DNA of 32,000 nt from Candidatus Scalindua sp. (GTDB lineage Bacteria > Planctomycetota > Brocadiia > Brocadiales > Scalinduaceae), in the NCBI GenBank assembly GCA_031316235.1, contig JALDRA010000001.1, positions 2,400,001 to 2,432,000 on the forward strand, in the 5' to 3' direction. Of this stretch, positions 1,413 to 29,571 are shown piece by piece; the first letter of the stretch is position 1, and the number at the start of each line of letters is the position of its first letter. The notes under the pieces were generated by a model, which saw only the letters and a list, made by a program, of their open reading frames with translations, had not been told where the DNA came from and searched no databases. Position numbers and translations under genes: made by a program.

Positions 1413-2888
1413 TTGACTATGACTATTATGGGTAATTATGAAAGGCTTTTAGAAACATATAAGAAATCAACAATTCTTGAATCTATTGCCGAGGTTCTCC
1501 AATGGGACCAGGAAGTGATGATGCCGGAGGGCGCTTTGCCGGTACGGGCACAGCAGAGCTCTGCTCTGGCAGCACTGGAACACGACATCCTGACATCTGA
1601 TGAGATGAACGTCCAGCTTGTATCAGTAGAACAGGAAAATCTGGATCTTGACCAGGCTGCAAATGTGCGGGAGATTAAGAGAAATTTTGAACGTGCCAGG
1701 AAAGTTCCGAATGCATTAGTTCAGGAATTACGCGAAACCGCAATAACGGGTGTCGAATCCTGGAAAGCAGCTCGGAAGGGGAACGATTTCAAGATATTTT
1801 TACCCTCTCTCAGGAATGTTTTCGCCTTATCAAGAAAAGTTGCGGAATGGATAGACCCAGACAAACATCCGTATGAAGTTCTCCTTGAAAGTTACGAGCA
1901 GGATATGTCTATAGAGGAGATTAAAAGTCATCTCAATACAATAAAAGAGCATTTTGTCCCTCTTATTGCCGGGATTAAGGGCCAGGAAATAGACGATTCC
2001 CTGATTACCAGAGAGGTTGATGTTGAAAAGCAGATCGAGTTTAACCGTTTTATTGCCAAAGCAATCGGTTATGATTTCTCCAAAGGAAGATTAGACGTTT
2101 CAGAACATCCGTTTACATCCTGTTATGGCAGAATTACGACAAGATATAACACAGGATGGTGGTCAGCTATCTCCGGGACCATACACGAGGCTGGTCATGG
2201 TATGTACGAGCATCATTTACCTCTCAAATCTTTTGGCCTTCCTCTCGGACAGTATTGTTCCATGAGTGTTCATGAATCTCAATCGAGGCTTTGGGAAAAC
2301 AATGTCGGTAAATCGAAACCGTTCTGGAAAAAGTTTTTCCCTGATCTCAGAAATTCGTACGGTTTCGATGTTGATTTAGAGGAATTCTATAGAATTATAA
2401 ACAAGGCAGAACCGAACTTCATAAGAATTGAAGCTGATGAACTGACCTATAACCTGCACATCATTCTCAGGTTTGAAATTGAACTTGGCCTGATTGAAGG
2501 CAAGATACACTTTGACGAGCTTCCTGAAGTCTGGAATCAGAAATTCAAGGAGTATCTTGGTATTGTTCCTCCTGCTGATTCCCTTGGCGTGTTGCAGGAT
2601 ATTCATTGGGCCTGGGGCAATATCGGCTATTTTCCCACGTATACGCTAGGAAGTATGATAGCGGCGCAACTGTTTGCTGCCGCTGAAAATGATATCCCTG
2701 GTTTGGCGGGCAGCATAGAGCAGGGTAAATTTGAGGAACTGAGATCCTGGCTCAACAGAAACATATGGAGTCACGGGAAAAGGTATTTGACCCGGGAGTT
2801 GATAAGGAGGGCCACGGGAAAAGATCCGGCCCCGGACGATTATATAGACTATCTCAAAAGTAAGTATTCAGAAATCTATACGCTGTGA
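1413..2888 (+). CDS. Carboxypeptidase, M32 family (Taq-type metallocarboxypeptidase)
   Basis: 491-aa ORF with HEAGHGMYE (HExxH), HESQSRLWEN and IEADELTYNLHIILRFEIE, all typical of peptidase M32. Confidence 0.9.
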   Translation: MTMTIMGNYERLLETYKKSTILESIAEVLQWDQEVMMPEGALPVRAQQSSALAALEHDILTSDEMNVQLVSVEQENLDLDQAANVREIKRNFERARKVPNALVQELRETAITGVESWKAARKGNDFKIFLPSLRNVFALSRKVAEWIDPDKHPYEVLLESYEQDMSIEEIKSHLNTIKEHFVPLIAGIKGQEIDDSLITREVDVEKQIEFNRFIAKAIGYDFSKGRLDVSEHPFTSCYGRITTRYNTGWWSAISGTIHEAGHGMYEHHLPLKSFGLPLGQYCSMSVHESQSRLWENNVGKSKPFWKKFFPDLRNSYGFDVDLEEFYRIINKAEPNFIRIEADELTYNLHIILRFEIELGLIEGKIHFDELPEVWNQKFKEYLGIVPPADSLGVLQDIHWAWGNIGYFPTYTLGSMIAAQLFAAAENDIPGLAGSIEQGKFEELRSWLNRNIWSHGKRYLTRELIRRATGKDPAPDDYIDYLKSKYSEIYTL

Positions 2889-2910
2889 TGAAGATTATTC
2901 CATTGGGTTA

Positions 2911-3870
2911 ATGATGAGAACAAGACTGTTTCCCCCGGTAAAACCGTATCACACAGGTTTCCTCAGAGTCTCAAAACTTCACACGTTATTTTACGAAGAG
3001 GCAGGGAATCCTCAGGGAAAGCCGGTAATTTTTCTCCACGGAGGTCCCGGGGTCGGTATTCTTCCGGCTTACCGGAGATTCTTCGATCCTGAATTTTACC
3101 GGGTCGTCCTTCTCGATCAGCGGGGGTCGGGGAAAAGCACACCTTTTGCTGAATTGCGCGAGAATACAACGTGGCATCTCGTTGAAGATCTTGAGAAACT
3201 CCGGAAGCATCTCAAGATCGATAGATGGATCGTGACAGGTGGAAGCTGGGGGAGCACGCTTGCCCTCGCATACGCCCAGTGCTATCCAGAAAGCGTAAAG
3301 GGAATGATAATACGAGGTGTGTTTACGGCTCGTGCCTCTGAAAATGAGTGGCTCTTTTCTGAAAAAGGAGCAGGTCAGATATGGCCGGATGAATTTGAAA
3401 AATTCCTCTCAATCTTAAGGAAAGCAGAAAAGAGAGAGATTCTCAAATCATATGGTAAACGGCTTACTTCAAAAAACAGCGACATTGCATGGGAGGCAGC
3501 TCAGTCTTTCGCGAACTGGGAAGGTACCATAATGAATCTCGTGCCGGATGAGAAGAAAAAGAGCTCATTTCTGACGAAGGAGCGTACAATTGCCTTTGCA
3601 ACAATAGAGTGTTACTACGCACTGCACAATTTTTTCATGAAATCGAAAAAAAACGGTCTGTTCCAGAATATGAACAGCATTAGAAACATTCCCTTAACCA
3701 TTGTTCAAGGCCGCTACGATACCATCTGCCCTGTGCGGTCTGCCTATGATCTCCACAAATTCCTCCCCAATTCAAAACTCACTATTGTTCCTACCGGCTC
3801 CCATTCACCTCTGGAGGCTTCGATGAGAAAGGCCTTAATCAAGGAGAGCGAAGAGTTTAAAAACCTTTGA
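2911..3870 (+). CDS. pip: Prolyl aminopeptidase (proline iminopeptidase), alpha/beta hydrolase
   Basis: 319-aa ORF with PYHTGFL...LHGGPGVG, LLDQRGSGKS and the nucleophile elbow GGSWGSTLALAYA. Confidence 0.9.
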   Translation: MMRTRLFPPVKPYHTGFLRVSKLHTLFYEEAGNPQGKPVIFLHGGPGVGILPAYRRFFDPEFYRVVLLDQRGSGKSTPFAELRENTTWHLVEDLEKLRKHLKIDRWIVTGGSWGSTLALAYAQCYPESVKGMIIRGVFTARASENEWLFSEKGAGQIWPDEFEKFLSILRKAEKREILKSYGKRLTSKNSDIAWEAAQSFANWEGTIMNLVPDEKKKSSFLTKERTIAFATIECYYALHNFFMKSKKNGLFQNMNSIRNIPLTIVQGRYDTICPVRSAYDLHKFLPNSKLTIVPTGSHSPLEASMRKALIKESEEFKNL

Positions 3871-3980: not shown

Positions 3981-4120
3981 TATACTAAAACCGATCTGGT
4001 TTTCGGTTTTACCGGCAACCAGATCCTGGTTAATGGTATCCCCGGACAAAAAGCGCCGAGGACTTTACTCGCTCAATTTTATCTCGGATTTTATCCGAAA
4101 ACCATTGGAAGGTGAGTATA
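3981..4120 (+). repeat. AT-rich structured MITE/REP-like element, full-length copy A (about 140 bp)
   Basis: Ends are tatactaaaaccg...gtgagtata. Internal hairpins are aaaaccga/tcggtttt, aaccag/ctggtt and tcggat/atccga. It matches the reverse complement of 19058-19195 almost base for base and shares ends with copies at 20640, 22028, 23820 and 29495. Confidence 0.8.
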
Positions 4121-5244: not shown

Positions 5245-5990
5245 GAGTCTTTTATATTGTAAAACAACCTGATATAGGTAAAGAGATTGATAATGCACTG
5301 GATGCCATTGAAAGGATTAATCCTTCACTGAAGGATGTTTTGCCGAAGGTCTATGCACGGCAGAATCTTGACCCAACAAATCTGGGTGGTTTAATTGACC
5401 TGGTTGGAAACATTGCCCTGGGAGATGCAAAGGCCAGAAGCGCAGATGTTCTGGGTCATGTATTTGAATATTTCCTTGGTGAATTTGCACTGGCAGAAGG
5501 TAAAACCAGGAACAGGGGGCACCTGATAAACCGCAGAACACGGAAACTGTCGGAGGAGGACATTATCTGCATATCTGAAACCTATCACAAGTGGAGGAGT
5601 GCACCCACCCCTGGCCCCTCCAGGGAGGGGAACATAATTGATGGCTCTTCCAGGGAGGGGGACATAATTTCTGGCCTGTCCCGTAAGGGGAGTATATCAG
5701 CTTCCGGGAAAAAGAAAAAATCTCTCCCCGGGGAGGGTGGCTCGGAGAGTCGGGAGGGGTACACAGACATTCCCGGTTTCTGTAACTCCGCATCGATTGA
5801 GAGGGTGAGGGAACTGGATTACGTGCTTACGCCGGGAAGATATGTTGGCCTGCCTGATGAAGAAGAAGAAGATTTTGATTTTAATGAACGGTTTACCACT
5901 TTGAAAAAAGAGTTTGAAGAGCAGTTGAAAGAGGAAGCGAGATTAAATGCACTGATTGCTGAGAATTTAAAAAAGGTGAAACTGTCATGA
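5245..5990 (+). pseudogene. hsdM: Type I R-M methylase subunit HsdM remnant: part of the N-terminal region joined directly to the C-terminal tail, with the AdoMet-MTase core missing
   Basis: KQPDIGKEIDNALDAIERINPSLKDVLPKVYAR...DVLGHVFEYFLGEFALAEGK matches the conserved HsdM N-region. It is followed at once by RNRGHLINRRTRKLSEEDI..TYHKWR...DIPGFCNSASIERVRELDYVLTPGRYVG, the HsdM C-terminus. The GGEFYTP and NPPF catalytic motifs are absent. The frame is open from 5163. Confidence 0.8.
5602..5759 (+). repeat. G-rich tandem-hairpin element, copy E1 (in frame inside the hsdM tail)
   Basis: It starts cacccacccctggcccctccagggagggg. Units of about 30-33 bp each carry a cccctcc/ggagggg palindrome. It lies between the conserved HsdM motifs TYHKWR and GYTDIPGFC and translates as PTPGPSREGNIIDGSSREGDIISGLSRKGS. 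Boundaries are approximate. Confidence 0.75.
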
Positions 5991-6360
5991 ATCATCCGCT
6001 GGCGAAAGAGAAGGATTATTCCGCATGGCTTAAGGAACTGAAAAATAAGGTTTGACTGGTTCAGATAAAAGCGGCTGTTAAAGTTAATACTGAGTTACTG
6101 CTGTTTTATTGGGAACTGGGGCGGCATATTGCAGATAAACAGAAGGATGCAAAGTGGTTTGAAGGTTTTCTGAAGCAATTAAGCATTGATTTAATGGTTG
6201 AATTTCCAGATATGAAGGATTTTTCTTTAAGCAATCTAAAATATATCAAACAGTGGTATACTTTATTAGAATTCGAAAATAGCCAACAAGCCCTTGCCTA
6301 TTTAACACAAATCCCGTGGGGACACAATATTGTCATCATATCAAAGTGTAAAAACCCCGA
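5987..6360 (+). pseudogene. DUF1016/YhcG-like nuclease, N-terminal fragment with an in-frame TGA, 3'-truncated
   Basis: MNHPLAKEKDYSAWLKELKNKV*LVQIKAAVKVNTELLLFYWELGRHIADKQ...LSIDLMVEFPDMKDFSLSNLKYIKQWY...IPWGHNIVII matches my recollection of the DUF1016 N-terminal pattern. The TGA is at 6053-6055. Homology stops at about 6360, where hsdM-tail sequence resumes in the same frame. Confidence 0.7.
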
Positions 6361-6859
6361 TGAAGACATTACCTGCATATCTGAAACTTACCACAAGTGG
6401 AGGTATGAACCCACCCTTAGCCCCTCCCAGGAGGGGAACATTACTTCTGGCTCCTTCCAGGTGGAGAACGTGTCTTCCTTCCCCTCCCAGGAGGGGAATA
6501 TATCTCTCCCTGGAAAGGGAAATAAGCCTCATACCGGGAAAAGGAAATGTTCCTGTCCAGGTAAGGGTGTGTTGGGGAGCCGAGAAAAGTCCCTCCCTTG
6601 GGAGGGTGGCTCGGAGAGACGGGAGGGGTGCACGGGTATAACGGGTTTTTGTAACTCTGTAACAATGGAAAAGGTAAGAGAACTGGATTACGTGCTTACG
6701 CCGGGAAGGTATGTTGGCCTGCCCGATGACGAAGATGATTTTGATTTTAATGAACGGTTTACCACTTTGAAAAAAGAGTTTGAAGAGCAGTTGAAAGAGG
6801 AAGCGAGGCTGAATAAACGTATTGATGAGAATTTGAAAAAAATTAAGATCAATGAATGA
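6361..6859 (+). pseudogene. hsdM: Second, paralogous copy of the HsdM C-terminal tail (5'-truncated), overlapping the hsdS start
   Basis: DITCISETYHKWR...GITGFCNSVTMEKVRELDYVLTPGRYVGLPDDEDDFDFNERFTTLKKEFEEQLKEEARLN aligns by eye with 5556-5990 in DNA and protein, apart from the inserted element. It ends in ATGAATGA, overlapping hsdS. Confidence 0.8.
6408..6628 (+). repeat. G-rich tandem-hairpin element, copy E2 (same site in the second hsdM tail, longer)
   Basis: It starts aacccacccttagcccctcccaggagggg and ends gagggtggctcggagagacgggagggg, the same right end as E1. It translates as PTLSPSQEGNITSGSFQVENVSSFPSQEGNISLPG. Boundaries are approximate. Confidence 0.75.
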
Positions 6860-10158: not shown

Positions 10159-10264
10159 AATCACAGAATCCGAAATAGAACAATTCGCAGTTGAATTACT
10201 CAAAAAATCAGGCTACAAACACATCTATGCCTTCAACCGCAGACTATATGGAAGCAAACGGTAA
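10151..10264 (+). pseudogene. hsdR: HsdR 5' stub (about 27 homologous codons followed by unrelated sequence and a stop)
   Basis: From the TTG at 10151, LTEITESEIEQFAVELLKKSGYKHIYA parallels the N-terminus of the hsdR at 11313 (MNKISENTIEEFTIELLEKSGYQYLFA). The start overlaps the stop of the preceding ORF (TTGACTGA), and the stub ends in TAATG at the rhuM start. Confidence 0.6.
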
Positions 10265-10736
10265 TGAATAAAAACAATCTTCCTGATAAACAATCAAATT
10301 TCTTTCTCTACACCGGAAACGACGGGAAAGTAAATATCGAAGTATTTATGCAAGATGAAACGGTTTGGCTGACGCAAAAGGCTATCGGCGAGCTTTTTGG
10401 AAAGTCAAAAGCAATAATTAGCGAGCATCTTAAGAAAATATATGCAGAAGGAGAATTGGAGATGGAGTCAACTGTACGGAAATTCCGAACAGTTCAAGCT
10501 GAAGGATCAAGGAAAGTAGAAAGAGGTTTGGAATTTTACAATCTCAACGCCATCATCTCGGTCGGCTATCGCGTAAACTCCTACCAGGCTACACAGCTTC
10601 GCATATGGATAACCAAACCCTGAAAGAATTCATCATCAAAGGAGTTGTTCTGGATGATGAACGACTCAAGCAGGGCAATCAGGTTTTTGGTAAAAACTAT
10701 TTTGACGAACTACTGGAGTGCATCCGGGAAATACGT
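10264..10736 (+). pseudogene. rhuM: RhuM-family protein, frameshifted (about 10617) and 3'-truncated
   Basis: FLYTGNDGKVNIEVFMQDETVWLTQKAIGELFGKSKAIISEHLKKIYAEGEL...YNLNAIISVGYRVNSYQATQLRIW is the RhuM signature. It continues in another frame as LKEFIIKGVVLDDERLKQG...YFDELLECIREIR, consistent with a 1-nt loss in aaa(a)ccctg. The rest of RhuM is missing. Confidence 0.75.
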
Positions 10737-10781: not shown

Positions 10782-11329
10782 CAAAACATAATCCAAAGAT
10801 ACACCATCGTCGGTCAATCAGATTAAAAGAATACGATTATTCACAGGAAGGGTTCTATTTTATTACGATATGCACGAATCACCATGTATGTTTATTCGGC
10901 AAAATATACGATGGTAAAATGGTATTGAATGATGCGGGAAAAATTGCAAAAGAATGTTGGTTGGATATCACGGAACATTATCCGAATACCAGATTGCATG
11001 AATGTGTGATTATGCCAAATCATGTACATGGAATACTACAAATTGTAAATAACACGGGGGTAGGGGTTCAAGATATTGAACCCCTACAACAACCCAAACA
11101 AAACCAATACCAGAAAATAATTCCGCGTTCAATCGGTTCCATGGTGCGGGGATTTAAAATTGGTGTGACAAAATGGTTTCGGAAAAATACAAACGTATAT
11201 ACGGTATGGCAACACAATTATTACGAACATATTATACGCAACGAACAATCATATTATAAAATTTCGGAATACATTATCAAGAATCCCTCTCATTGGCTAA
11301 CTGATAAATACTATGAACAAGATTTCTGA
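10778..11329 (+). mobile_element. REP-associated tyrosine transposase (RAYT; IS200/IS605 TnpA-like Y1/HUH enzyme), apparently intact
   Basis: 183-aa ORF with a TTG start. It has HHRRSIRLKEYDYSQEGFYFITICT, the HUH motif in MPNHVHGILQI, and the catalytic Tyr region WQHNYYEHIIRNE. There is no tnpB. It overlaps the hsdR ATG by 17 nt. Confidence 0.85.
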
Positions 11330-12204
11330 AAACACTATAGAAGAATTTACCATTGAGTTACTAGAAAAGTCTGGTTATCAGTACCTGTTTGCCCCTTTAA
11401 TCGCCCCAAACGGTAAAACACCTGAAAGAGAGTCATTTGAAGATGTACTGTTAATCGAACGTCTGCAAACAGCAGTTGGCAGGATTAACCCTGAAATCTC
11501 TGAGGATATCAGGGAAGATGCCATAAAACAGTTACTCAGGTTAAACTCTCCAGAGTTGATCGCCAACAACGAGGGCTTTCACCGTATGCTTACCGAAGGT
11601 ATAACGGTTAGTTACCAGAAAGACGGAAATGATCGTGGGGATTTAGTGTGGATGATTGACTTTAAAAATCCTGACAATAACGACTTTCTTGTTGTCAATC
11701 AGTTTACGGTTATCGAAAACAGTGTAAATAAACGTCCTGATATTGTTCTCTTTGTCAATGGCCTTCCATTGGTGGTTATCGAACTCAAGAATCCTGCCGA
11801 TGAGAACGCGACCGTAATATCCGCATTCAGGCAGTTTCAAACCTACAAGCAGGCAATCCCCTCCCTGTTTACCTACAATGGCTTTATGGTTATTTCAGAC
11901 GGCCTGGAGGCAAAGGCAGGTTCTCTTTCAGCTGGACTAAGCCGATTCATGGCGTGGAAGACAGCAGACGGCAAGGTTGAAGCGTCTCCCCTGATTGGCC
12001 AACTGGAAACACTCGTTAAGGGTATGCTGAATAAGAAGACACTGTTAGACCTAATACGCCATTTTATTGTATTTGAAAAGTCCAGAAAAGAGGACAAAGA
12101 GACCGGTATTATCACCATACAAACTGTGAAGAAGCTTGCTTACTATCATCAGTATTATGCTGTAAACAGGGCGGTAGAATCGACGATCAGGGCGGCGGGG
12201 TATG

Positions 12205-12399
12205 TACCCACCCCTGGCCCCTCCCAGGAGGGGAACATAATTCTTGGCCCCTCCAAGGAGAGGGGCATAATTTCCGGATCCTCCCAGGATGGGAATATAT
12301 CTCCTGGTTCGTTCCGGGTAAGCAAAGGAACAAAAAGCCAACTTCCAGGTAGTGGTGAAGTAATAAGTCCCCTCCAGGGAGGGGATACAGGGGTGGGTA
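12205..12399 (+). repeat. G-rich tandem-hairpin element, copy E3: 195 bp with perfect 12-bp terminal inverted repeats
   Basis: tacccacccctg (12205-12216) is the exact reverse complement of caggggtgggta (12388-12399). Sub-terminal hairpins are cccctcccaggagggg (12218-12233) and cccctccagggagggg (12369-12384). At 195 bp (65 codons) it reads through as PTPGPSQEGNIILGPSKERGIISGSSQDGNISPG. Confidence 0.85.
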
Positions 12400-12780
12400 G
12401 AAAAATCATCTCTTACAATCCAAAACTGAAGGAATTGGCAAAAAAGCTGAGAAAAAATATGACGCTTTCTGAGGTTCTGCTCTGGGATCAGTTAAAACAG
12501 AAGAAAATGCTCGGTTTTGATTTTGACCGACAAAGACCCATTGATGAATATATCGTTGATTTTTATTGTAAAGATTTAATGTTGGCAATTGAGATTGACG
12601 GTGAAAGTCATACCTGTGAAGAAGTTTATGAGAATGATGTTATAAGGCAGAAAAGACTCGAATCATTGGGTGTGCGTTTCTTACGTTTTCATGATCTGGA
12701 CGTAAAAAAGAATCTTAATGGTGTACTCAGGGTAATAGAACATTGGATCAAGAAACATCAAAATGATTTGGTGGGGAGAT
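12400..12780 (+). CDS. DUF559 (Vsr-like PD-(D/E)xK) endonuclease module embedded in frame in hsdR, with no start or stop codon of its own
   Basis: LAKKLRKNMTLSEVLLWDQLKQKKMLGFDFDRQRPIDEYIVDFYCKDLMLAIEIDGESH...DVIRQKRLESLGVRFLRFHDLDV...LRVIEHWI matches the DUF559 pattern (LR..T.aE..LW..L....l.g.kFrRQ.pi..yivDFyc....l.iElDG..H). It has no counterpart in HsdR proteins. Confidence 0.85.
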
Positions 12781-12950
12781 TACCCACCCCTTGCCCCTCC
12801 CGGGAGGGGAAACCCACCCCGGACCCCTCCAGGGAGGGGAACATAATTCATGGCTCTTCCAGGGAGGGGGACATAATTTCTGGTCCCACCGAGGAGGGGA
12901 ATATACCTTATCCTTTTGGGGAAGGGAGGAAGTCCCTCCCTGGGGAGGAG
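12781..12950 (+). repeat. G-rich tandem-hairpin element, copy E4 (left end duplicated, right end degenerate)
   Basis: It starts tacccaccccttgcccctcccgggagggg. A perfect 16-bp palindrome lies at 12794-12809, followed by a second left end, aacccaccccggacccctccagggagggg. The stretch 12824-12885 is nearly identical to 5609-5670 in E1. It translates as PTPCPSREGKPTPDPSREGNIIHGSSREGDIISG. The right boundary is approximate. Confidence 0.75.
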
Positions 12951-13923
12951 TCCGTAATGGAATCGCCTGCAAGCTATGGTTTACCGGGAGTCAAGGCGCA
13001 GCCTGTCGGTGACCGAAAGGGTGGTGTTGTATGGCATACGCAGGGGAGCGGGAAATCCCTGTCAATGGTTTTCTATACAGGAAAGATTGTTCTTGCTTTA
13101 GATAATCCCACCATTCTGGTTATTACTGACAGGAATGATCTGGACGACCAGTTATTTGATACCTTTGCGGCATCGAAACAGCTTCTCAGGCAAGAGCCTG
13201 TACAGGCAGAGGACAGAGAGCAATTGAAGGATCTTCTCAAAGTGGCATCGGGTGGTGTTGTCTTTACAACCATTCAGAAATTTCAACCTGAAGAAGGAAA
13301 TGTGTACGAGCAGCTCTCCGATAGAAAAAACATAATTGTCATAGTTGATGAGGCACATCGTACTCAGTACGGGTTTAAGGCCAAAACGATAGATGAAAAG
13401 GATGATAAAGGAAATGTAGTCGGCAAGAAAATTGTATACGGATTTGCGAAATATATGCGTGATGCCCTGCCAAACGCAACGTATCTTGGATTTACGGGTA
13501 CGCCGATAGAAAGCACAGATGTTAACACACCCGCTGTATTTGGTAATTATGTTGATATTTACGATATTTTACAGGCGGTAGATGACGGCGCAACCGTAAG
13601 GATTTTTTACGAAAGCAGGCTGGCGAAGATAAAGCTCAGTGAAGAGGGGAAAAAACTTATTGCGGATCTTGATGAAGTGCTTGAACATGATGAATTAACC
13701 CAGACCCAGAAGGCAAAAGCAAAGTGGACACAACTGGAAGCATTAATCGGCAGTGAAGACAGGGTTAAGCAGGTGGCGCAGGATATTATCACACATTTCG
13801 AGCTGAGGAATAATCCCGGAGGCGGGGGGCTTGATGGTAAGGCAATGGTTGTGGCCATGTCGCGCCGTATTGCTGCCGATTTGTATAAGGGAATCATTAA
13901 TATTCGACCACAATGGCACAGCT

Positions 13924-14310
13924 TTTTCTGATAGTGGAGGAAAGGGTGACCCTGCAATTGCCCAGGAAAAAGCTGTCAAAATGATGCTGGAAAAACTTGA
14001 AGTGGTTTCGCAGATGTTTCATGGATTTGCCTATGAAGATTATTTTCAGTCAGACACTTCAGCAAAGCTATCCCTTATTCTTGCTGCAGAAGAACATATT
14101 CTGGGAATGGACAACGGGAGAAAGAGATATATTGATGAAGTAACCGCTCTGCCTCAGGTCTTTTCCATAGCGATACCCCATGAACAGGCAATGGACGTAA
14201 AAGATGAATTATCATTCTTTCAGGCGGTTAAATCACGATTAGCAAAGTTTGACAGCACAGGTTCAGGCAGGACCGACGAGGAAATAGAGACAGTAATACC
14301 TTACGAATAA
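13924..14310 (+). pseudogene. hsdR: HsdR C-terminal-domain fragment (different frame, 3'-truncated)
   Basis: SGGKGDPAIAQEKAVKMMLEKLEVVSQMFHGFAYEDYF...LILAAEEHILGMDNGRKRYIDEVTAL...ELSFFQAVKSRLAKF matches the region downstream of the HsdR helicase (DUF3387-type). The first roughly 30 codons of ORF 13831..14310 are an out-of-frame overlap, not homologous sequence. Confidence 0.7.
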
Positions 14311-14542
14311 AGCGATTCCACCCCTGGCAGTTACTGTATCATTTGTTACGCCACTCTTCTAAATCTTGCACTTGCTTTTCAATACAGTATTATTCATAAT
14401 GCTTTCCTCCCCGTCTTAGCCGGGCAGGACTTACCGGGTGAGAGAGTTTGTTTTTTGCAGATTTGTTATAACAAGCTTCTCTTGTCCTTTTAAGCCAGTT
14501 ATAAGCTTTTTTGTTGATTACAAACCGTTCAACCTGGATTTC

Positions 14543-17141: not shown

Positions 17142-18062
17142 TTAACAAATTTCTTCAAGCCGTTTCTTCGCCGGCCGAACCCTCGAAAGTTCTTGATCTT
17201 TCTTCACCACCAGTTTCTTTTTCCGATACAGTAACTTTTCAAATAGTAAATTTGTTTTAGTGGGTAAGTTTTGACTCTCTGCCCTCAGATATCGTGCTCC
17301 CATACGACAATAATCGGGATCTATTTCGACACCAATGCTGTTTCTTCCGTACCTCAAGGCAGCAACCATACTGGTTCCCGAGCCGCAAAACGGATCAAGC
17401 ACTGTATCGTCAACAAATGAAAACATGCGTGTCAATCTCGATGCCAGCTCCAGAGGGTACGGAGCCGGATGTTTTTTTAAAGATGATCCGGGGATGTTCC
17501 AGATCTGCTGAAACCATCGGTCAAAGTCTTTCTTATTGATCATACTCTCCTGGCGCTGCTGCGCCGTTGGTTTCCTGTAGCCACCCGGTTTTCGCTGCAT
17601 GAGGATGAACTCTATATCATTCTTGATAATAGCGTTCGGTTCATAGGGTTTCCCGAGAAATTTTGAGCCGTTGGCTACCTCATATGAGGCATTGGCTATC
17701 TTGTACCATATTATGGGATTGAGATTGTCAAACCCTATTTTCCGGCACAGGACACAAATATCTGCATGAAGCGGAAAAACGAGATGCCTGCCGAATTTCC
17801 TTCGAGATACGCAAACATCACCGACGACACAAACCAGACGCCCACCGGGAACCAAAACACGAAACACGTGTTCCCAGACGAGTTTTATTTCCATGAGAAA
17901 TTTTTCGTAATCTTCTATATGCCCCAGCTGATCAGGATTTTCGTTGTATTTTTTAAGATTCCAGTACGGCGGAGAGGTAATTACGAGATGGACAGACTCA
18001 TCGGGAATGAATGATAAGTCTCTCGCGTCTCCGTTAACCAGCCTGTGGGTAGTTTCACTCAT
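17142..18062 (-). CDS. Type II DNA methyltransferase, beta class (N4-C or N6-A; PF01555-like)
   Basis: Motif IV (TSPPYW) lies N-terminal to motif I (LDPFCGSGTS), which is the beta-class circular permutation. The start codon overlaps the stop of the upstream endonuclease gene by 1 nt (TAATG on the minus strand). Confidence 0.85.
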   Translation of the reverse strand: MSETTHRLVNGDARDLSFIPDESVHLVITSPPYWNLKKYNENPDQLGHIEDYEKFLMEIKLVWEHVFRVLVPGGRLVCVVGDVCVSRRKFGRHLVFPLHADICVLCRKIGFDNLNPIIWYKIANASYEVANGSKFLGKPYEPNAIIKNDIEFILMQRKPGGYRKPTAQQRQESMINKKDFDRWFQQIWNIPGSSLKKHPAPYPLELASRLTRMFSFVDDTVLDPFCGSGTSMVAALRYGRNSIGVEIDPDYCRMGARYLRAESQNLPTKTNLLFEKLLYRKKKLVVKKDQELSRVRPAKKRLEEIC

Positions 18063-18796
18063 TACGAAATAAATCCTCCAACATGCGCTACGAGGATATG
18101 TGAAAAATTTTCGACAGACAGCTCATCGAGAGGTGTGGCAAATACCCCCTGAGGTCCATTATCCCGGTCTGAAGTAATGAAAGCAGATGCGGTGTAGTGT
18201 CTCTCCAGGACAAGTTTTCTGCAAAAAATTTCATAGCGTTTCATGTAGGATGCACCTTTGAATTCTGGAAATACTGAAAAATGAGGTTCTTTAACACGGA
18301 CAGGTTTTTGTGAAGAGGCACAATCTTCGAGCATGAAAAAATATCCGAGAAAGGGCTGAGGACTTGTATGGAATGCACCTTCACGGTAGGCAGTCCATAA
18401 GTCGATGGCGCTTCCCATTGCTTCCTCGGTCCGGTTATTGAAATTGTTGCCAAATGAGGGTCCAACCTGCGACTTGGCTTCGATTGCGGCGATGAGTTTT
18501 CCATCCTTCACCACAAGAAGATCCCACTCCTTTGTCGGGCGGAAGAAACCGGGCAGTTCAAGAGAGCCCTTCCTCTGGACCAGTTTGATGTCCAATCCTG
18601 TTGACACAATAAGCCGGGTAAAGAGTTCTACAAAACCGTCCATCTGTGCACCACCAGTTACCGCACTTCGAAGGCCAGCGTCAGCACGTCCGCTCTGCTG
18701 TTGTCTGCGCTGCTGAAAAAGCCTTGTTTCCCAGTAGTGCGAAACAGCGGCCCCAATCATTTCTTGTAAATTTTCTGGTAAACCAAACTTATTCAT
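18062..18796 (-). CDS. Type II restriction endonuclease, XhoI/PaeR7I-like (family assignment from memory)
   Basis: 244-aa ORF with SAVTGGAQMDGF...ELPGFFRPTKEWDLLVV...IEAKSQVGPSFGNNFNNRTEEAMGSAIDLWTAYREGAF, which I recall as the XhoI-family core. It is translationally coupled to the MTase. Confidence 0.65.
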   Translation of the reverse strand: MNKFGLPENLQEMIGAAVSHYWETRLFQQRRQQQSGRADAGLRSAVTGGAQMDGFVELFTRLIVSTGLDIKLVQRKGSLELPGFFRPTKEWDLLVVKDGKLIAAIEAKSQVGPSFGNNFNNRTEEAMGSAIDLWTAYREGAFHTSPQPFLGYFFMLEDCASSQKPVRVKEPHFSVFPEFKGASYMKRYEIFCRKLVLERHYTASAFITSDRDNGPQGVFATPLDELSVENFSHILVAHVGGFIS

Positions 18797-18859: not shown

Positions 18860-18895
18860 TATGCTAAAACCGAAAACCAAACCGGTTTCAGTATA
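18860..18895. repeat. AT-rich MITE family, minimal hairpin copy C
   Basis: tatgctaaaaccgaaaaccaaaccggtttcagtata is an imperfect version of the palindromic core seen at 23835-23874. Confidence 0.55.
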
Positions 18896-19033
18896 GCTAC
18901 TTTTGTGAATTAATTCGCTGCATGATCGAATTTTAGCTCCTCTATTCCCGTATGTCAATTAAATAGGTTGTGGTTGAACGTAAACTATCCATTTCATGCG
19001 CTGATGTTATCATTTCTTTTGAGTTTTAGATTT

Positions 19034-19195
19034 TTCCAAAAACCATTATAAGATAAGTATACTCATCTCATACTGGATTTCGGATACAATCCGAGATAAA
19101 ATTGAGCGGGTAAAGTCCTCGGCGCTTTTTGTCCGGGGATACCTTCACCAGGATTTAGTTTCCGGTAAAACCGAAAACCAAATCGGTAGTAAATA
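19034..19195 (-). repeat. AT-rich MITE, full-length copy D (19058-19195, reverse orientation) abutted head-to-head by a 28-bp right-end fragment (19034-19061)
   Basis: 19058-19195 is the reverse complement of copy A with few differences. The segment aaccattataagataagtata immediately before it is a plus-oriented right end that shares the central tata. Confidence 0.8.
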
Positions 19196-19409
19196 TCAGG
19201 ATAATTTTCAAGGGAAACGGGGCTATTCCCTCCATGCCCTGACTTTTATGTCCCCGTGTAAAGCAATCCTGAGGGCTTGAATTGTTTGCAGCGTATTAAG
19301 TGGTTATTTTATTTAGAAGTAGCTTTGTGGGCTGAATTATTATATACTGAACCCCTGGTTTTTGAGCCTTTTGACAAATTTGATACAAAAAAAGAAAGAT
19401 AAAGAAGAG

Positions 19410-20639: not shown

Positions 20640-20750
20640 TATACTAAAACCGATCTGGTTTTCGGTTTTACTCGAAACCAGATCCTGGTTGCTGGCACAC
20701 TCCATCCGTTTTTTCCCGGTTTTACCGAAAACCATTTTAAGATGAGTATA
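20640..20750 (+). repeat. AT-rich MITE, short variant, copy E (about 111 bp)
   Basis: tatactaaaaccgatctggttttcggtttta...ccgaaaaccattttaagatgagtata. The left 50 bp are nearly identical to copy A. The middle matches copy H. Confidence 0.8.
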
Positions 20751-21995: not shown

Positions 21996-22027
21996 AATTC
22001 TATCTCCTTTCACTATTTTGAACAAAT

Positions 22028-22084
22028 TATACTCATCTCATACTGGATTTCTGATTAAATCCGAGAAAAAACAGAGTGAGTATT
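22028..22084 (-). repeat. AT-rich MITE family, truncated copy F
   Basis: tatactcatctcatactggatttctgattaaatccgagaaaaaacagagtgagtat aligns with the first 60 bp of copy D. Confidence 0.65.
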
Positions 22085-23819: not shown

Positions 23820-23889
23820 ATACCCATCTTACACGTTATACTAAAACCGAAAACCAAATCGGTTTTAGTATAACGTGTAAGATGGGTAT
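23820..23889. repeat. Perfect palindrome (31-bp arms, 8-nt loop) built on the AT-rich MITE core, copy G; possible rluA terminator
   Basis: atacccatcttacacgttatactaaaaccga (23820-23850), loop aaaccaaa, then tcggttttagtataacgtgtaagatgggtat (23859-23889). I checked base by base that the arms are exact reverse complements. Confidence 0.85.
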
Positions 23890-28720: not shown

Positions 28721-29104
28721 TTAATAACGGCTCTCTCCTCTTTGTGGCGTCTGTCGTTCTATCCTTTGGTATTTTTCCCTATTCTGTGGTTCTGTCCTTT
28801 GGTATTTATCCTTATATGGTTCCTGTTTCTTTTCGGGGGAGGTATATTTATCTGGGTGCTCCCTATACTCGTTTGCACATTCTTCACAACACAGCCTTAT
28901 ACTGTTACCGTCTTCTTCAACTTCAACAGGCTTCCCCATACTGTCAACGGCCTTTCCACAAACCTTACAGGTATCAACAGACTCCTCTGAAGCAGAGGCC
29001 TGCTTAATACCGAAGCAACTGTTGACAGATGAAATATTACCCTCATAAGGATACATAAGCACAAAAGCACCAGCAAGAGCACTTACTATATATCCAATAC
29101 GCAT
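28721..29104 (-). CDS. Small secreted Cys-rich protein with a YHS/TRASH-like metal-binding motif
   Basis: Signal peptide MRIGYIVSALAGAFVLMY, then CKVCGKAVDSMGKPVEVEEDGNSIRLCCEECANEYREHPDKY (C-x2-C...C-x3-C). The basic tail has an imperfect KYQR(T/I)E repeat. Confidence 0.6.
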   Translation of the reverse strand: MRIGYIVSALAGAFVLMYPYEGNISSVNSCFGIKQASASEESVDTCKVCGKAVDSMGKPVEVEEDGNSIRLCCEECANEYREHPDKYTSPEKKQEPYKDKYQRTEPQNREKYQRIERQTPQRGESRY

Positions 29105-29494
29105 AATAATTTAACTCCTTTCAGAAAATCCTTAAATACAATTATAATAAAGTACTTATATTATAATTGCTACCGATAGGGTTTACCAAACAAAAACCGC
29201 TACCGTATTTCTATCACACAAAGACTAATCCCCGATAAATCTGCAAAGTCCTCAACCGGCCGGCTACCGTCATATTCACTCTCCAATATTGGTTTCGTAT
29301 TGTTATAAATCATCAGTAACGTCCGGTTAGGAATTTGCACGTGCGGCTTTTGTAATACCCGAGTGCTTTTATCGGGTATCCAGAGAGTCTCATTCATCCT
29401 GGATTCCCGCTAAAAACATGCGGGAATGACATCTTTTGAGCAATAAATTAAATACGCAAAAACCTAACCGGACACTACTGGATTTTTCTAAAAA

Positions 29495-29571
29495 CCAAAG
29501 CCTGGTTGCTGCTATACGCACTCCATTTTTTTTCCGGAGTATTATCCGAAAACCATTATAAGATGAGTATA
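29495..29571 (+). repeat. AT-rich MITE family, 5'-truncated short variant, copy H
   Basis: ctaaaaaccaaagcctggttgctgctatacgcactccattttttttccggagtattatccgaaaaccattataagatgagtata aligns with the right two-thirds of copy E. Confidence 0.7.

Follow-up and report, generated by a model that had tools for sequence, protein, structure and literature searches.

In Candidatus Scalindua sp., the hsdR gene of a type I restriction-modification (R-M) system carries a composite insertion of approximately 750 bp that is translated in frame within the host gene. We analysed this insertion in a stretch of 32,000 nucleotides of contig JALDRA010000001.1 (positions 2,400,001 to 2,432,000 of the forward strand; hereafter, the window), where it extends from 12205 to ~12955. 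Its core, 12369-12810, is a cassette in which a DUF559 coding sequence is placed between inverted units of ~30 nt. Each unit consists of a C-rich 7-bp hairpin followed, after 2-6 nt, by a G-box, and the boxes are directed toward the gene. An initial annotation had singled out the 195-bp segment 12205-12399 as the archetype copy of a G-rich MITE (miniature inverted-repeat transposable element) or of a REPIN, a doublet of repetitive extragenic palindromic (REP) sequences. Our analysis points instead, with some reserve, to this segment being the left-hand, box-outward doublet of G-rich hairpin units of a composite selfish insertion.

The DUF559 cassette inserted in hsdR

The host gene and the parts of the insertion, in order along the window, are as follows.

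11313-13931, + strand: hsdR (HSDR_N, SWI2_SNF2), the host open reading frame (ORF), R subunit of type I restriction
12205-12234, + strand: left terminal unit, with C-box TACCCACCCC, 4 nt and hairpin CCCCTCCcaGGAGGGG
12213-12307, + strand: array of 30-bp hairpin units, 3.2 copies, decaying from 5′ to 3′
12308-12368, + strand: degenerate spacer, assigned by reading the sequence
12369-12399, + strand: (-) unit, with hairpin CCCCTCCagGGAGGGG, ataca and G-box GGGGTGGGTA
12399-12779, + strand: DUF559 domain (PF04480, Vsr/EDxHD-like PD-(D/E)xK nuclease), in frame with hsdR
12781-12810, + strand: (+) unit, the downstream inverted repeat of the cassette (TACCCACCCCttgCCCCTCCcgGGAGGGG), which pairs with the upstream repeat
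12811-12900, + strand: right-hand array, a second C-box/hairpin unit followed by two 30-bp hairpin units
12930-12948, + strand: D-type 3′ terminal hairpin remnant (AAGTCCCTCCCTGGGGAGG), with its G-box deleted here

Based on Pfam, ORF 11313-13931 encodes HSDR_N at residues 4-208, DUF559 at residues 371-477 and SWI2_SNF2 at residues 566-793. When aligned to EcoR124I HsdR, query positions 258 and 568 correspond to chain residues 267 and 300, and ~275 extra residues occupy the linker that joins the nuclease domain to the motor domain. The DUF559 homology begins at 12399, abutting the 12369-12399 unit, and an in-frame GTG is present at 12393-12395. The domain was recognized by Pfam (PF04480, E = 1.2e-27) and through PDB entry 3HRL (E = 1.9e-13), and the motif IVDFYC...AIEIDGESH...D is intact; the Vsr-like assignment is based on profile and motif. 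The domain is 70-80% identical to free-standing DUF559 proteins of ~125 residues from Bacteroidota and other groups, which start with M-x-RKIIPYNPKLKEL. In longer DUF559 gene calls, PSWEGPGVG-type peptides are found upstream and PTPxPSxEGN peptides downstream, corresponding to the unit read in either orientation.

Purifying selection acts on the inserted nuclease, with a ratio of nonsynonymous to synonymous substitution rates (dN/dS) of 0.07-0.10 among three orthologous inserts. Between the window and the orthologous locus L201, dS is 0.49 over the 127 codons covered in the insert, as compared with 0.87 and 1.04 in the flanking hsdR parts, a difference that is suggestive at most of a later exchange of the insert. 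In L201 and in a further orthologous locus, L202, the 12930-12948 hairpin runs on into the G-box GGGAGGGGT, which is deleted in the window.

An intein or an intron was considered for the insertion and rejected: Pfam detected no Hint/intein domain and Rfam no intron model, the junctions are repeat peptides, and the insert is read through in frame. Rfam searches at gathering thresholds (window and 11 loci) and at an E-value threshold (12100-13000) gave no family over the units and only matches at chance level.

All of the sequence features that the initial annotation described for the 195-bp segment were confirmed at the coordinates given. The segment ends in exact 12-bp terminal inverted repeats, since 12388-12399 (CAGGGGTGGGTA) is the reverse complement of TACCCACCCCTG at 12205-12216; allowing up to two mismatches, TACCCACCCCTG is matched seven times in the window (1.57 expected from shuffles). 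CCCCTCCnnGGAGGGG hairpins adjoin both termini (12218-12234 and 12369-12385), and palindromes of this type number nine in the whole window, where 0.06 are expected. As a single strand, the segment folds back on itself from end to end, with 12+8+8 paired bases and one small bulge; these ~28 paired bases agree with the extended inverted termini of about 30 bp proposed earlier. The predicted energy is -47.8 kcal/mol for single-stranded DNA (z = -5.7) and -98.3 kcal/mol for RNA (z = -5.6), values that none of 200 shuffles equalled in either case. The internal array was recovered by Tandem Repeats Finder at 12213-12307 with a period of 30, 3.2 copies and 69% matches, and it encodes the peptides already listed, PSQEGNIILG / PSKERGIISG / SSQDGNISPG. 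Its palindromes are partly degenerate, unit 1 being a perfect 7+7 palindrome and units 2 and 3 increasingly imperfect. The length is indeed a multiple of three (195 = 65 x 3), and ORF 11313-13931 is read through the segment without a stop. The spacer 12308-12368 appears to resemble a decayed form of the KKSLPGEGGSE 3′ end that the hsdM copies described below carry. As had been pointed out, TA is present at both ends of 12205-12399 without being consistent across copies; the bases beside the other copies in the window are CA (5602) or AA (6408 and 12811), and thus there is no consistent TA duplication.

The description of the 195 bp as an archetypal or autonomous unit was not sustained: the inverted right terminus is missing from every other copy in the window, and the length of the arm varies among orthologues. 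The (-) unit at 12369-12399 plays a double role, being the right terminus of the 195 bp and, at the same time, the upstream inverted repeat of the DUF559 cassette. Accordingly placed between two partners, 12388-12399 pairs equally well with 12205-12216 and with 12781-12792, and it is the latter pair that brackets the nuclease. This cassette (12369-12810), which the initial annotation did not recognize, is what is conserved from phylum to phylum.

Inverted repeats around DUF559 genes in other bacteria

DUF559 genes and their inverted repeats are inherited together across phyla, and the sequence families of the repeats co-vary with the DUF559 protein lineages. We selected 80 metagenome loci by DUF559 protein patterns alone, 76 of which were evaluable; an inverted repeat was called when the two 150-nt flanks scored 30 or more against each other, and flanks displaced by 400 nt were used as a control. 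An inverted repeat surrounded the DUF559 gene at 55 of the 76 loci (median 44), as compared with none of 46 displaced flanks (median 15, maximum 22). In 112 of 138 flanks, we found a G-box preceded by a C-rich hairpin that is perfect over 6 bp or more. The repeat family was shared with the nearest protein neighbour in 52 of 62 cases, as compared with an average of 15.6 and at most 28 in permutations.

The unit reads TTCCCCTCCnnGGAGGGGnnAGGGGTGGGT, and five C-box/hairpin units occur in the window. In an alignment, 23 unit positions did not vary among Scalindua, Kuenenia, Brocadiaceae, Flavobacteriaceae and Bacteroidales. A genome scan with the 27-nt pattern CCCACCCNNNNCCCCTCCNNGGAGGGG, for which we estimate a chance expectation of ~0.3 in the genome collection, matched at least 120 stretches from at least eight phyla, including cyanobacteria, Bacteroidota, Verrucomicrobiota, Calditrichota, Moduliflexus/UASB14, Hydrogenedentota and others; some of these stretches are metagenome-assembled genomes (MAGs), whose taxonomic labels carry a binning risk. 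The dispersed, REP-like repeat family with conserved termini that the initial annotation had postulated therefore exists. Among the 120 matches listed, eight contain DUF559; in seven of them, the gene lies within ~160 nt of the motif (six abutting) and is flanked, on one or both sides, by (-) hairpin/G-box and (+) C-box/hairpin units. Among the ORFs of these listed matches that lie no more than 400 nt from the units, no protein family other than DUF559 recurs near the motif across phyla.

A chance origin, in which the segment would be low-complexity sequence or a simple tandem repeat without any family, is compatible with the limited likeness of the array units (69%) and with the folding of single 32-nt units, which is no better than that of shuffles of the same composition; the thermodynamic stability of one unit alone is thus no evidence. 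We nevertheless regard this explanation as refuted and as extremely improbable because of the excess of palindromes in the window, the number of stretches matched by the 27-nt pattern and the columns invariant across phyla.

In each of the six repeat families, the purine arm of the hairpin is mirrored in the G-box, with A either kept as A or changed to T, as listed below.

Purine arm GGAGGGG: G-box GGGGTGG
Purine arm AGAGGGG: G-box GGGGTGT
Purine arm GGGAGGG: G-box GGGAGGG
Purine arm AAGGGGG: G-box GGGGGAT or GGGGGTT
Purine arm (A)GGGGGG: G-box GGGGGGT

The regularity was observed in the flanks of L121-L200 and at 12369-12399 and 6591-6629 of the window. The mirror is perfect in 74 of 110 distinct flanks (permuted mean 34, maximum 44). 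Mirror symmetry of this kind is the sequence rule of purine-motif triplexes (G·G:C, A·A:T, T·A:T), in which the third strand folds back and lies antiparallel to the purine strand. As it recurs in approximately six independent families, the rule may point to an intramolecular triplex; G-quadruplex formation and the recognition of half-sites by a protein are other possible causes.

Gene-less units far outnumber cassettes and occur as singlets, as both types of doublet, as tandem arrays and as in-frame inserts. The 120 matches listed contain 155 motif sites, and cassette ends are found only beside the seven DUF559 genes. Inverted doublets of ~85 bp occur in both polarities (L090, L091, L096, L050, L101, L105 and L027/L059), with several copies per genome in some cases (L027/L059). 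Free box-out doublets of this length are present at L090, L091 and L096. In this respect, the REPIN-like layout proposed by the initial annotation was found in other genomes, whereas the 195-bp segment for which it had been proposed is the left arm of a larger insertion. One array is located in a Bacteroidales MAG (L057, 1461-2409), in which 15 tandem C-box/hairpin units of 63 nt, 95% alike, directly follow a DUF559 gene and lie within a stop-free stretch of 1068 codons.

The location of copies inside genes, which had been noted from the window, also proved to be one part of a wider distribution: in-frame copies occur in several hosts, and intergenic and singlet copies occur too, with 14 of the 155 motif sites in long open frames. 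The in-frame hosts, from unrelated bacteria, include UvrA, an Eco57I/MmeI-like R-M enzyme (methylase), a BatA/VWA protein and an IS605 TnpB (L050, L030, L020, L002). At L050 (4148-4232), a whole inverted doublet is found in UvrA, beside the UvrA interaction domain. The permissive sites of in-frame units comprise the inter-domain linker of hsdR, the C-terminal loop of hsdM (two fragments) and the UvrA, Eco57I-like and BatA/VWA hosts. IS605-type TnpB ORFs are located near units at five cyanobacterial loci, all of them from the genera Okeania and Prochloron; at L002, the unit is an insertion inside TnpB itself.

The predominance of gene-less units is what would be expected if the initial annotation had been right about a stand-alone MITE or REPIN, with units moved in trans by some other transposase (of the REP-associated tyrosine transposase (RAYT) or IS200/IS605 type, or another) and with DUF559 as cargo, as a neighbour or as a gene that preferentially lands in the repeats. 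The free ~85-bp box-out doublets, the folding of the 195 nt into one long hairpin and the TnpB ORFs at five cyanobacterial loci are in line with this explanation, and REPs are known to be insertion targets of IS elements (PMC1525189). No transposase family, however, recurs beside the units across phyla as DUF559 does, and the TnpB cases are restricted to two genera, with the L002 unit sitting inside TnpB. The co-variation between repeat families and DUF559 lineages would be unexpected for a passenger. Additionally, the units do not carry the GTAG/CGTC tag of RAYT-linked REPs (PMC3733652), and no target-site duplication was found. On these grounds, we consider transposition in trans to be an unlikely explanation.

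Alleles of hsdR and the decayed R-M island

Presence and absence of the insert were observed at the same site among hsdR orthologues. The site is uninserted in P0009, which is 91% identical over the sequence in common, in P0024 and in L204; it contains a remnant in Kuenenia P0017/L203 (YVPTPYPSQEGNIVSNPSQEGCIVESPESYG) and in P0015, and it carries a full insert in the window, L201 (Brocadiaceae), L202, P0004, P0006 and P0008. The window, L201, L202 and L203 have exactly the same 5′ junction, GGGTATG/TACCCACCCC, and based on this common junction, the inserts look like the product of a single insertion within the anammox group, with L203 having the appearance of a deletion derivative of an L202-type insert. 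Relative to the window, the left arm between YHQYYAVN and RKII is 10 codons longer in L201 and 7 codons shorter in L202, and the left (+) unit is absent from the HsdR relatives P0006 and P0008. The number of units thus varies, and the length of 195 bp is no fixed property.

A second DUF559 lineage, with other repeat peptides, is located at the same hsdR loop in P0075, P0019, P0042, P0055 and others. At a different, neighbouring loop, before ITTIKKLAAYHQYY, P0016, P0107, P0074 and relatives carry a third lineage, which is flanked by repeat peptides of its own; one record with a third-lineage insert is named as a Halobacteriota archaeon. To judge from these sequences, at least three DUF559 lineages have entered hsdR. 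In terms of identity, the hsdR-borne DUF559 domains of the window type are interleaved with free-standing ones, with P0006 showing 0.87 to a free-standing protein and 0.82 to the best hsdR-borne one.

These alleles also bear on a third explanation, according to which HsdR adaptively acquired a second nuclease domain for restriction, the PSxEGN repeats being flexible, slippage-prone linkers and nothing now being mobile. In its favour, the insert is retained in many full-length HsdR clusters, purifying selection acts on the domain, the entry of three lineages into the same protein region could reflect selection, and the unit number varies as slippage predicts. The same DNA unit, however, also flanks free-standing intergenic DUF559 genes and occurs alone in and between unrelated genes in many phyla. 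Moreover, the flanks are inverted DNA repeats conserved at the nucleotide level, which are used in three reading frames in different proteins; the hsdR-borne copies are interleaved with free-standing ones; and the host gene in the window is a pseudogene. Adaptive domain acquisition is therefore, in our opinion, a decidedly improbable account of the insertion.

The remaining features of the R-M locus that concern hsdR and the units are the following.

5603-5760, + strand: gene-less copy, in frame in the hsdM C-terminal fragment 5340-5990, with A-type C-box/hairpin, units, D-type hairpin and G-box GGGAGGGGT
6409-6629, + strand: gene-less copy, in frame in the second hsdM C-terminal fragment 6194-6859, with the same layout as 5603-5760
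13831-14310, + strand: out-of-frame hsdR continuation (T1RH-like_C), ending truncated at 14310
14318-14328, + strand: 11-nt C-box fragment CCACCCCTGGC, exact, directly past the hsdR truncation

Compared with its orthologues, the hsdR pseudogene has lost ~135 codons, the C-terminal half of the helicase, between WHS and FYSDSGG, and this deletion shifts the frame at ~13920. The sequence CCACCCCTGGC has three exact matches in the window, where none is expected, and the presence of this C-box fragment at the point of truncation suggests that a unit took part in the deletion. The two hsdM C-terminal fragments are paralogous (83-90% alike over 5716-5974 / 6585-6840); the first has no methylase core, and a DUF1016_N fragment is joined to the second. 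At 10264-10623 lies a fragment of RhuM. In this window, hsdR and hsdM belong to an R-M island that is horizontally mobile, in decay and colonised by hairpin-unit elements. The hsdR family is 83-91% identical across Peptococcaceae, Aminicenantes, Marinimicrobia and anammox Planctomycetota, a level of identity across very different phyla which indicates that the R-M system itself has recently spread horizontally. No Scalindua record was present among the matches listed (at least 120) in the genome scan with the unit motif.

The C-terminal loop of hsdM was also inspected at orthologous loci. In L204 (hsdM at 1582-3246, Peptococcaceae), it contains a different repeat-like peptide, ADLRVCPHSDEYPNVQNTGEHVGSPLQ, and in L202 and L203, it reads SPSSNSSQKEENK..SPSGRGGGEG. 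Whichever repeat family is present seems to land recurrently in this loop.

Three further observations were made elsewhere in the window. An apparently intact XhoI-type type II R-M pair (N6_N4_Mtase and XhoI endonuclease family) is encoded on the - strand at 17142-18796, a few kb from the decayed type I locus. A second, unrelated repeat family, which is A+T-rich (TATACTAAAACCGAAAACCAAA..., TATACTCATCTCATA...), was found at 3981-4120, 18860-19196, 20640-20750, 22012-22082, 23820-23889 and 29483-29571; among its copies are an inverted pair of 86 nt (91%) and, at 23820-23889, a 31-nt palindrome without mismatches. Its copies apparently all lie between ORFs of at least 100 residues, and it looks like a resident intergenic family of the REP or MITE type, whereas the G-rich units of the window are found only in R-M genes. 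Finally, 28750-28815 contains two tandem 33-bp copies, 87% alike, among overlapping ORFs on both strands.

Proposed mechanism and comparison with known systems

Considering the evidence as a whole, we find it somewhat probable that the insertion represents a selfish cassette formed by a DUF559 nuclease, inverted hairpin/G-box ends and gene-less relatives, which would operate in a manner similar to REP/RAYT or homing systems with a different enzyme. In such a cassette, the DUF559 protein, probably acting as a dimer like I-Bth0305I, would recognize a pair of units or the structure that they form, and would nick or cut there. Recombinational repair from a cassette-bearing copy would then spread the cassette, while break repair or slippage would multiply gene-less units and arrays; inside genes, only those insertions that keep the frame and lie in tolerant loops would survive. 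Recognition, cutting and recombinational spread are proposed for the predicted DUF559 nuclease because of the precedent of EDxHD homing endonucleases (PMC3239194, PMC9403480). Vsr-like EDxHD proteins have been described as homing endonucleases, with the I-Bth0305I dimer contacting ~60 bp of a pseudo-palindromic target (PMC3239194), and one DUF559 gene has been assigned to the EDxHD homing family (PMC9403480).

Several observations weigh against a selfish DUF559 cassette. The nuclease activity, the binding specificity and the mobility of this DUF559 lineage are predicted by analogy. We know of no PD-(D/E)xK nuclease that acts alone as a transposase. The target-site duplication that the initial annotation had considered possible could not be defined: relative to the uninserted hsdR of L204, the insert replaces a 36-nt variable linker, and no sequence is duplicated. 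L204 has no unit-like or palindromic target at the insertion site, and simple homing into a unit doublet thus fails to explain the hsdR insertions. Approximately one-quarter of the DUF559 loci have no clear inverted repeat, and the loci used in the statistics are mutually related and represent only ~six repeat families, which means that the counts overstate independence. The four window copies all lie within one horizontally mobile R-M island; consequently, the Scalindua evidence is limited to this island, and we claim no genome-wide family. Among viral contigs, no close relatives of the window DUF559 lineage were found, and among plasmids, six records contained DUF559 relatives, one per record, all below 60% identity.

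The REP/REPIN system and its RAYT transposase (Bertels & Rainey 2011, PMC3116915; Nunvar 2010; reviewed in PMC3184786) share with the present units the arrangement of short G+C-rich imperfect palindromes as singlets, inverted doublets and clusters, as well as a small gene flanked by inverted units, units that outnumber the gene and a unit family that tracks the gene lineage. The flanked gene differs, being a Vsr-like PD-(D/E)xK nuclease here and a Y1/HUH transposase in the case of RAYT. The gene flanked by the units is DUF559, and no RAYT was found among the ORFs within 400 nt of the units in the 120 matches listed, no Y1_Tnp profile search having been aimed at all ORFs. In the alignment, the stem is preceded by TT and followed by a G-box, in place of the GTAG/CGTC tag (PMC3733652). 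Also different are the mirroring of the purine arm by the G-box, the frequent translation of units within genes and the occurrence of the same unit sequence across phyla.

With the EDxHD/Vsr-like homing endonucleases (Dassa 2009, PMC2677866; Taylor 2011, PMC3239194), the cassette appears to share the catalytic fold family, the insertion in conserved DNA-metabolism genes and the presence/absence pattern among orthologues. The ~60-bp pseudo-palindromic target of the I-Bth0305I dimer is, in addition, comparable in size to two inverted units. In contrast to homing genes, the cassette is associated with no intron or intein and is read as protein, no NUMOD DNA-binding region was detected, long inverted repeats bracket the gene, and many copies are gene-less.

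Palindromic elements of Rickettsia fused in frame to genes (Ogata 2000), in the account given of them in PMC3184786, are similar in that palindromic repeats are placed in frame at tolerant sites and translated as an extra peptide. They belong to another sequence family and host range, whereas the units described here are linked to a nuclease gene and form tandem arrays. Bacterial MITEs, including Nezha and Correia (PMC3184786, PMC10969869), resemble the 195-bp segment in their terminal inverted repeats, their size of 100-250 bp, their lack of a gene of their own and their strong predicted fold. They differ from it in that the segment has no target-site duplication, that its partner with matching ends is the DUF559 cassette, which encodes no known transposase, and that its length varies through unit arrays.

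Finally, hairpins adjacent to a short box suggest structure-specific recognition, as in another family of mobile elements. Elements of the IS200/IS605 family have subterminal hairpins beside a short box, which are recognized in single-stranded form. In the case described here, by contrast, each end is the inverted repeat of the other, the enzyme belongs to another class and no TnpA is linked. The insertion is outside REP/RAYT systems, classical MITEs and intron/intein homing genes, and it has operating features in common with each of them.

No paper describing the association between DUF559 genes and these repeats was found, in a literature whose coverage was incomplete for subscription journals. 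In-frame palindromic inserts were already known (PMC3184786); what appears to be new here is the link between DUF559 and the repeats and the mirror-box rule, more than the 195-bp segment itself. A broader proposal, which we advance only tentatively and as something short of probable, is that the DUF559 family includes a dedicated enzyme of pan-bacterial selfish hairpin repeats. These would be REP-like and RAYT-independent, with ends read as a folded structure, as in the triplex rule, and would spread by nuclease-triggered recombinational copying. If true, this proposal would explain the short G-rich palindromes that number in the thousands across cyanobacteria, Bacteroidota, Planctomycetota and other phyla, as well as the in-frame copies found in proteins.

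If the link between DUF559 and the repeats holds, it would provide a testable function for DUF559, a large orphan nuclease family, and a second route to REP-like repeats, based on a PD-(D/E)xK nuclease instead of a tyrosine transposase. It would also account for a frequent peculiarity of annotations, the G/P/E-rich peptides (such as PTPxPSxEGN or PLLGGxGVG) that lie inside or at the end of conserved proteins, and the lineage-specific pairings of hairpin and mirror box would constitute a set of predicted enzyme-substrate pairs for studies of DNA recognition.

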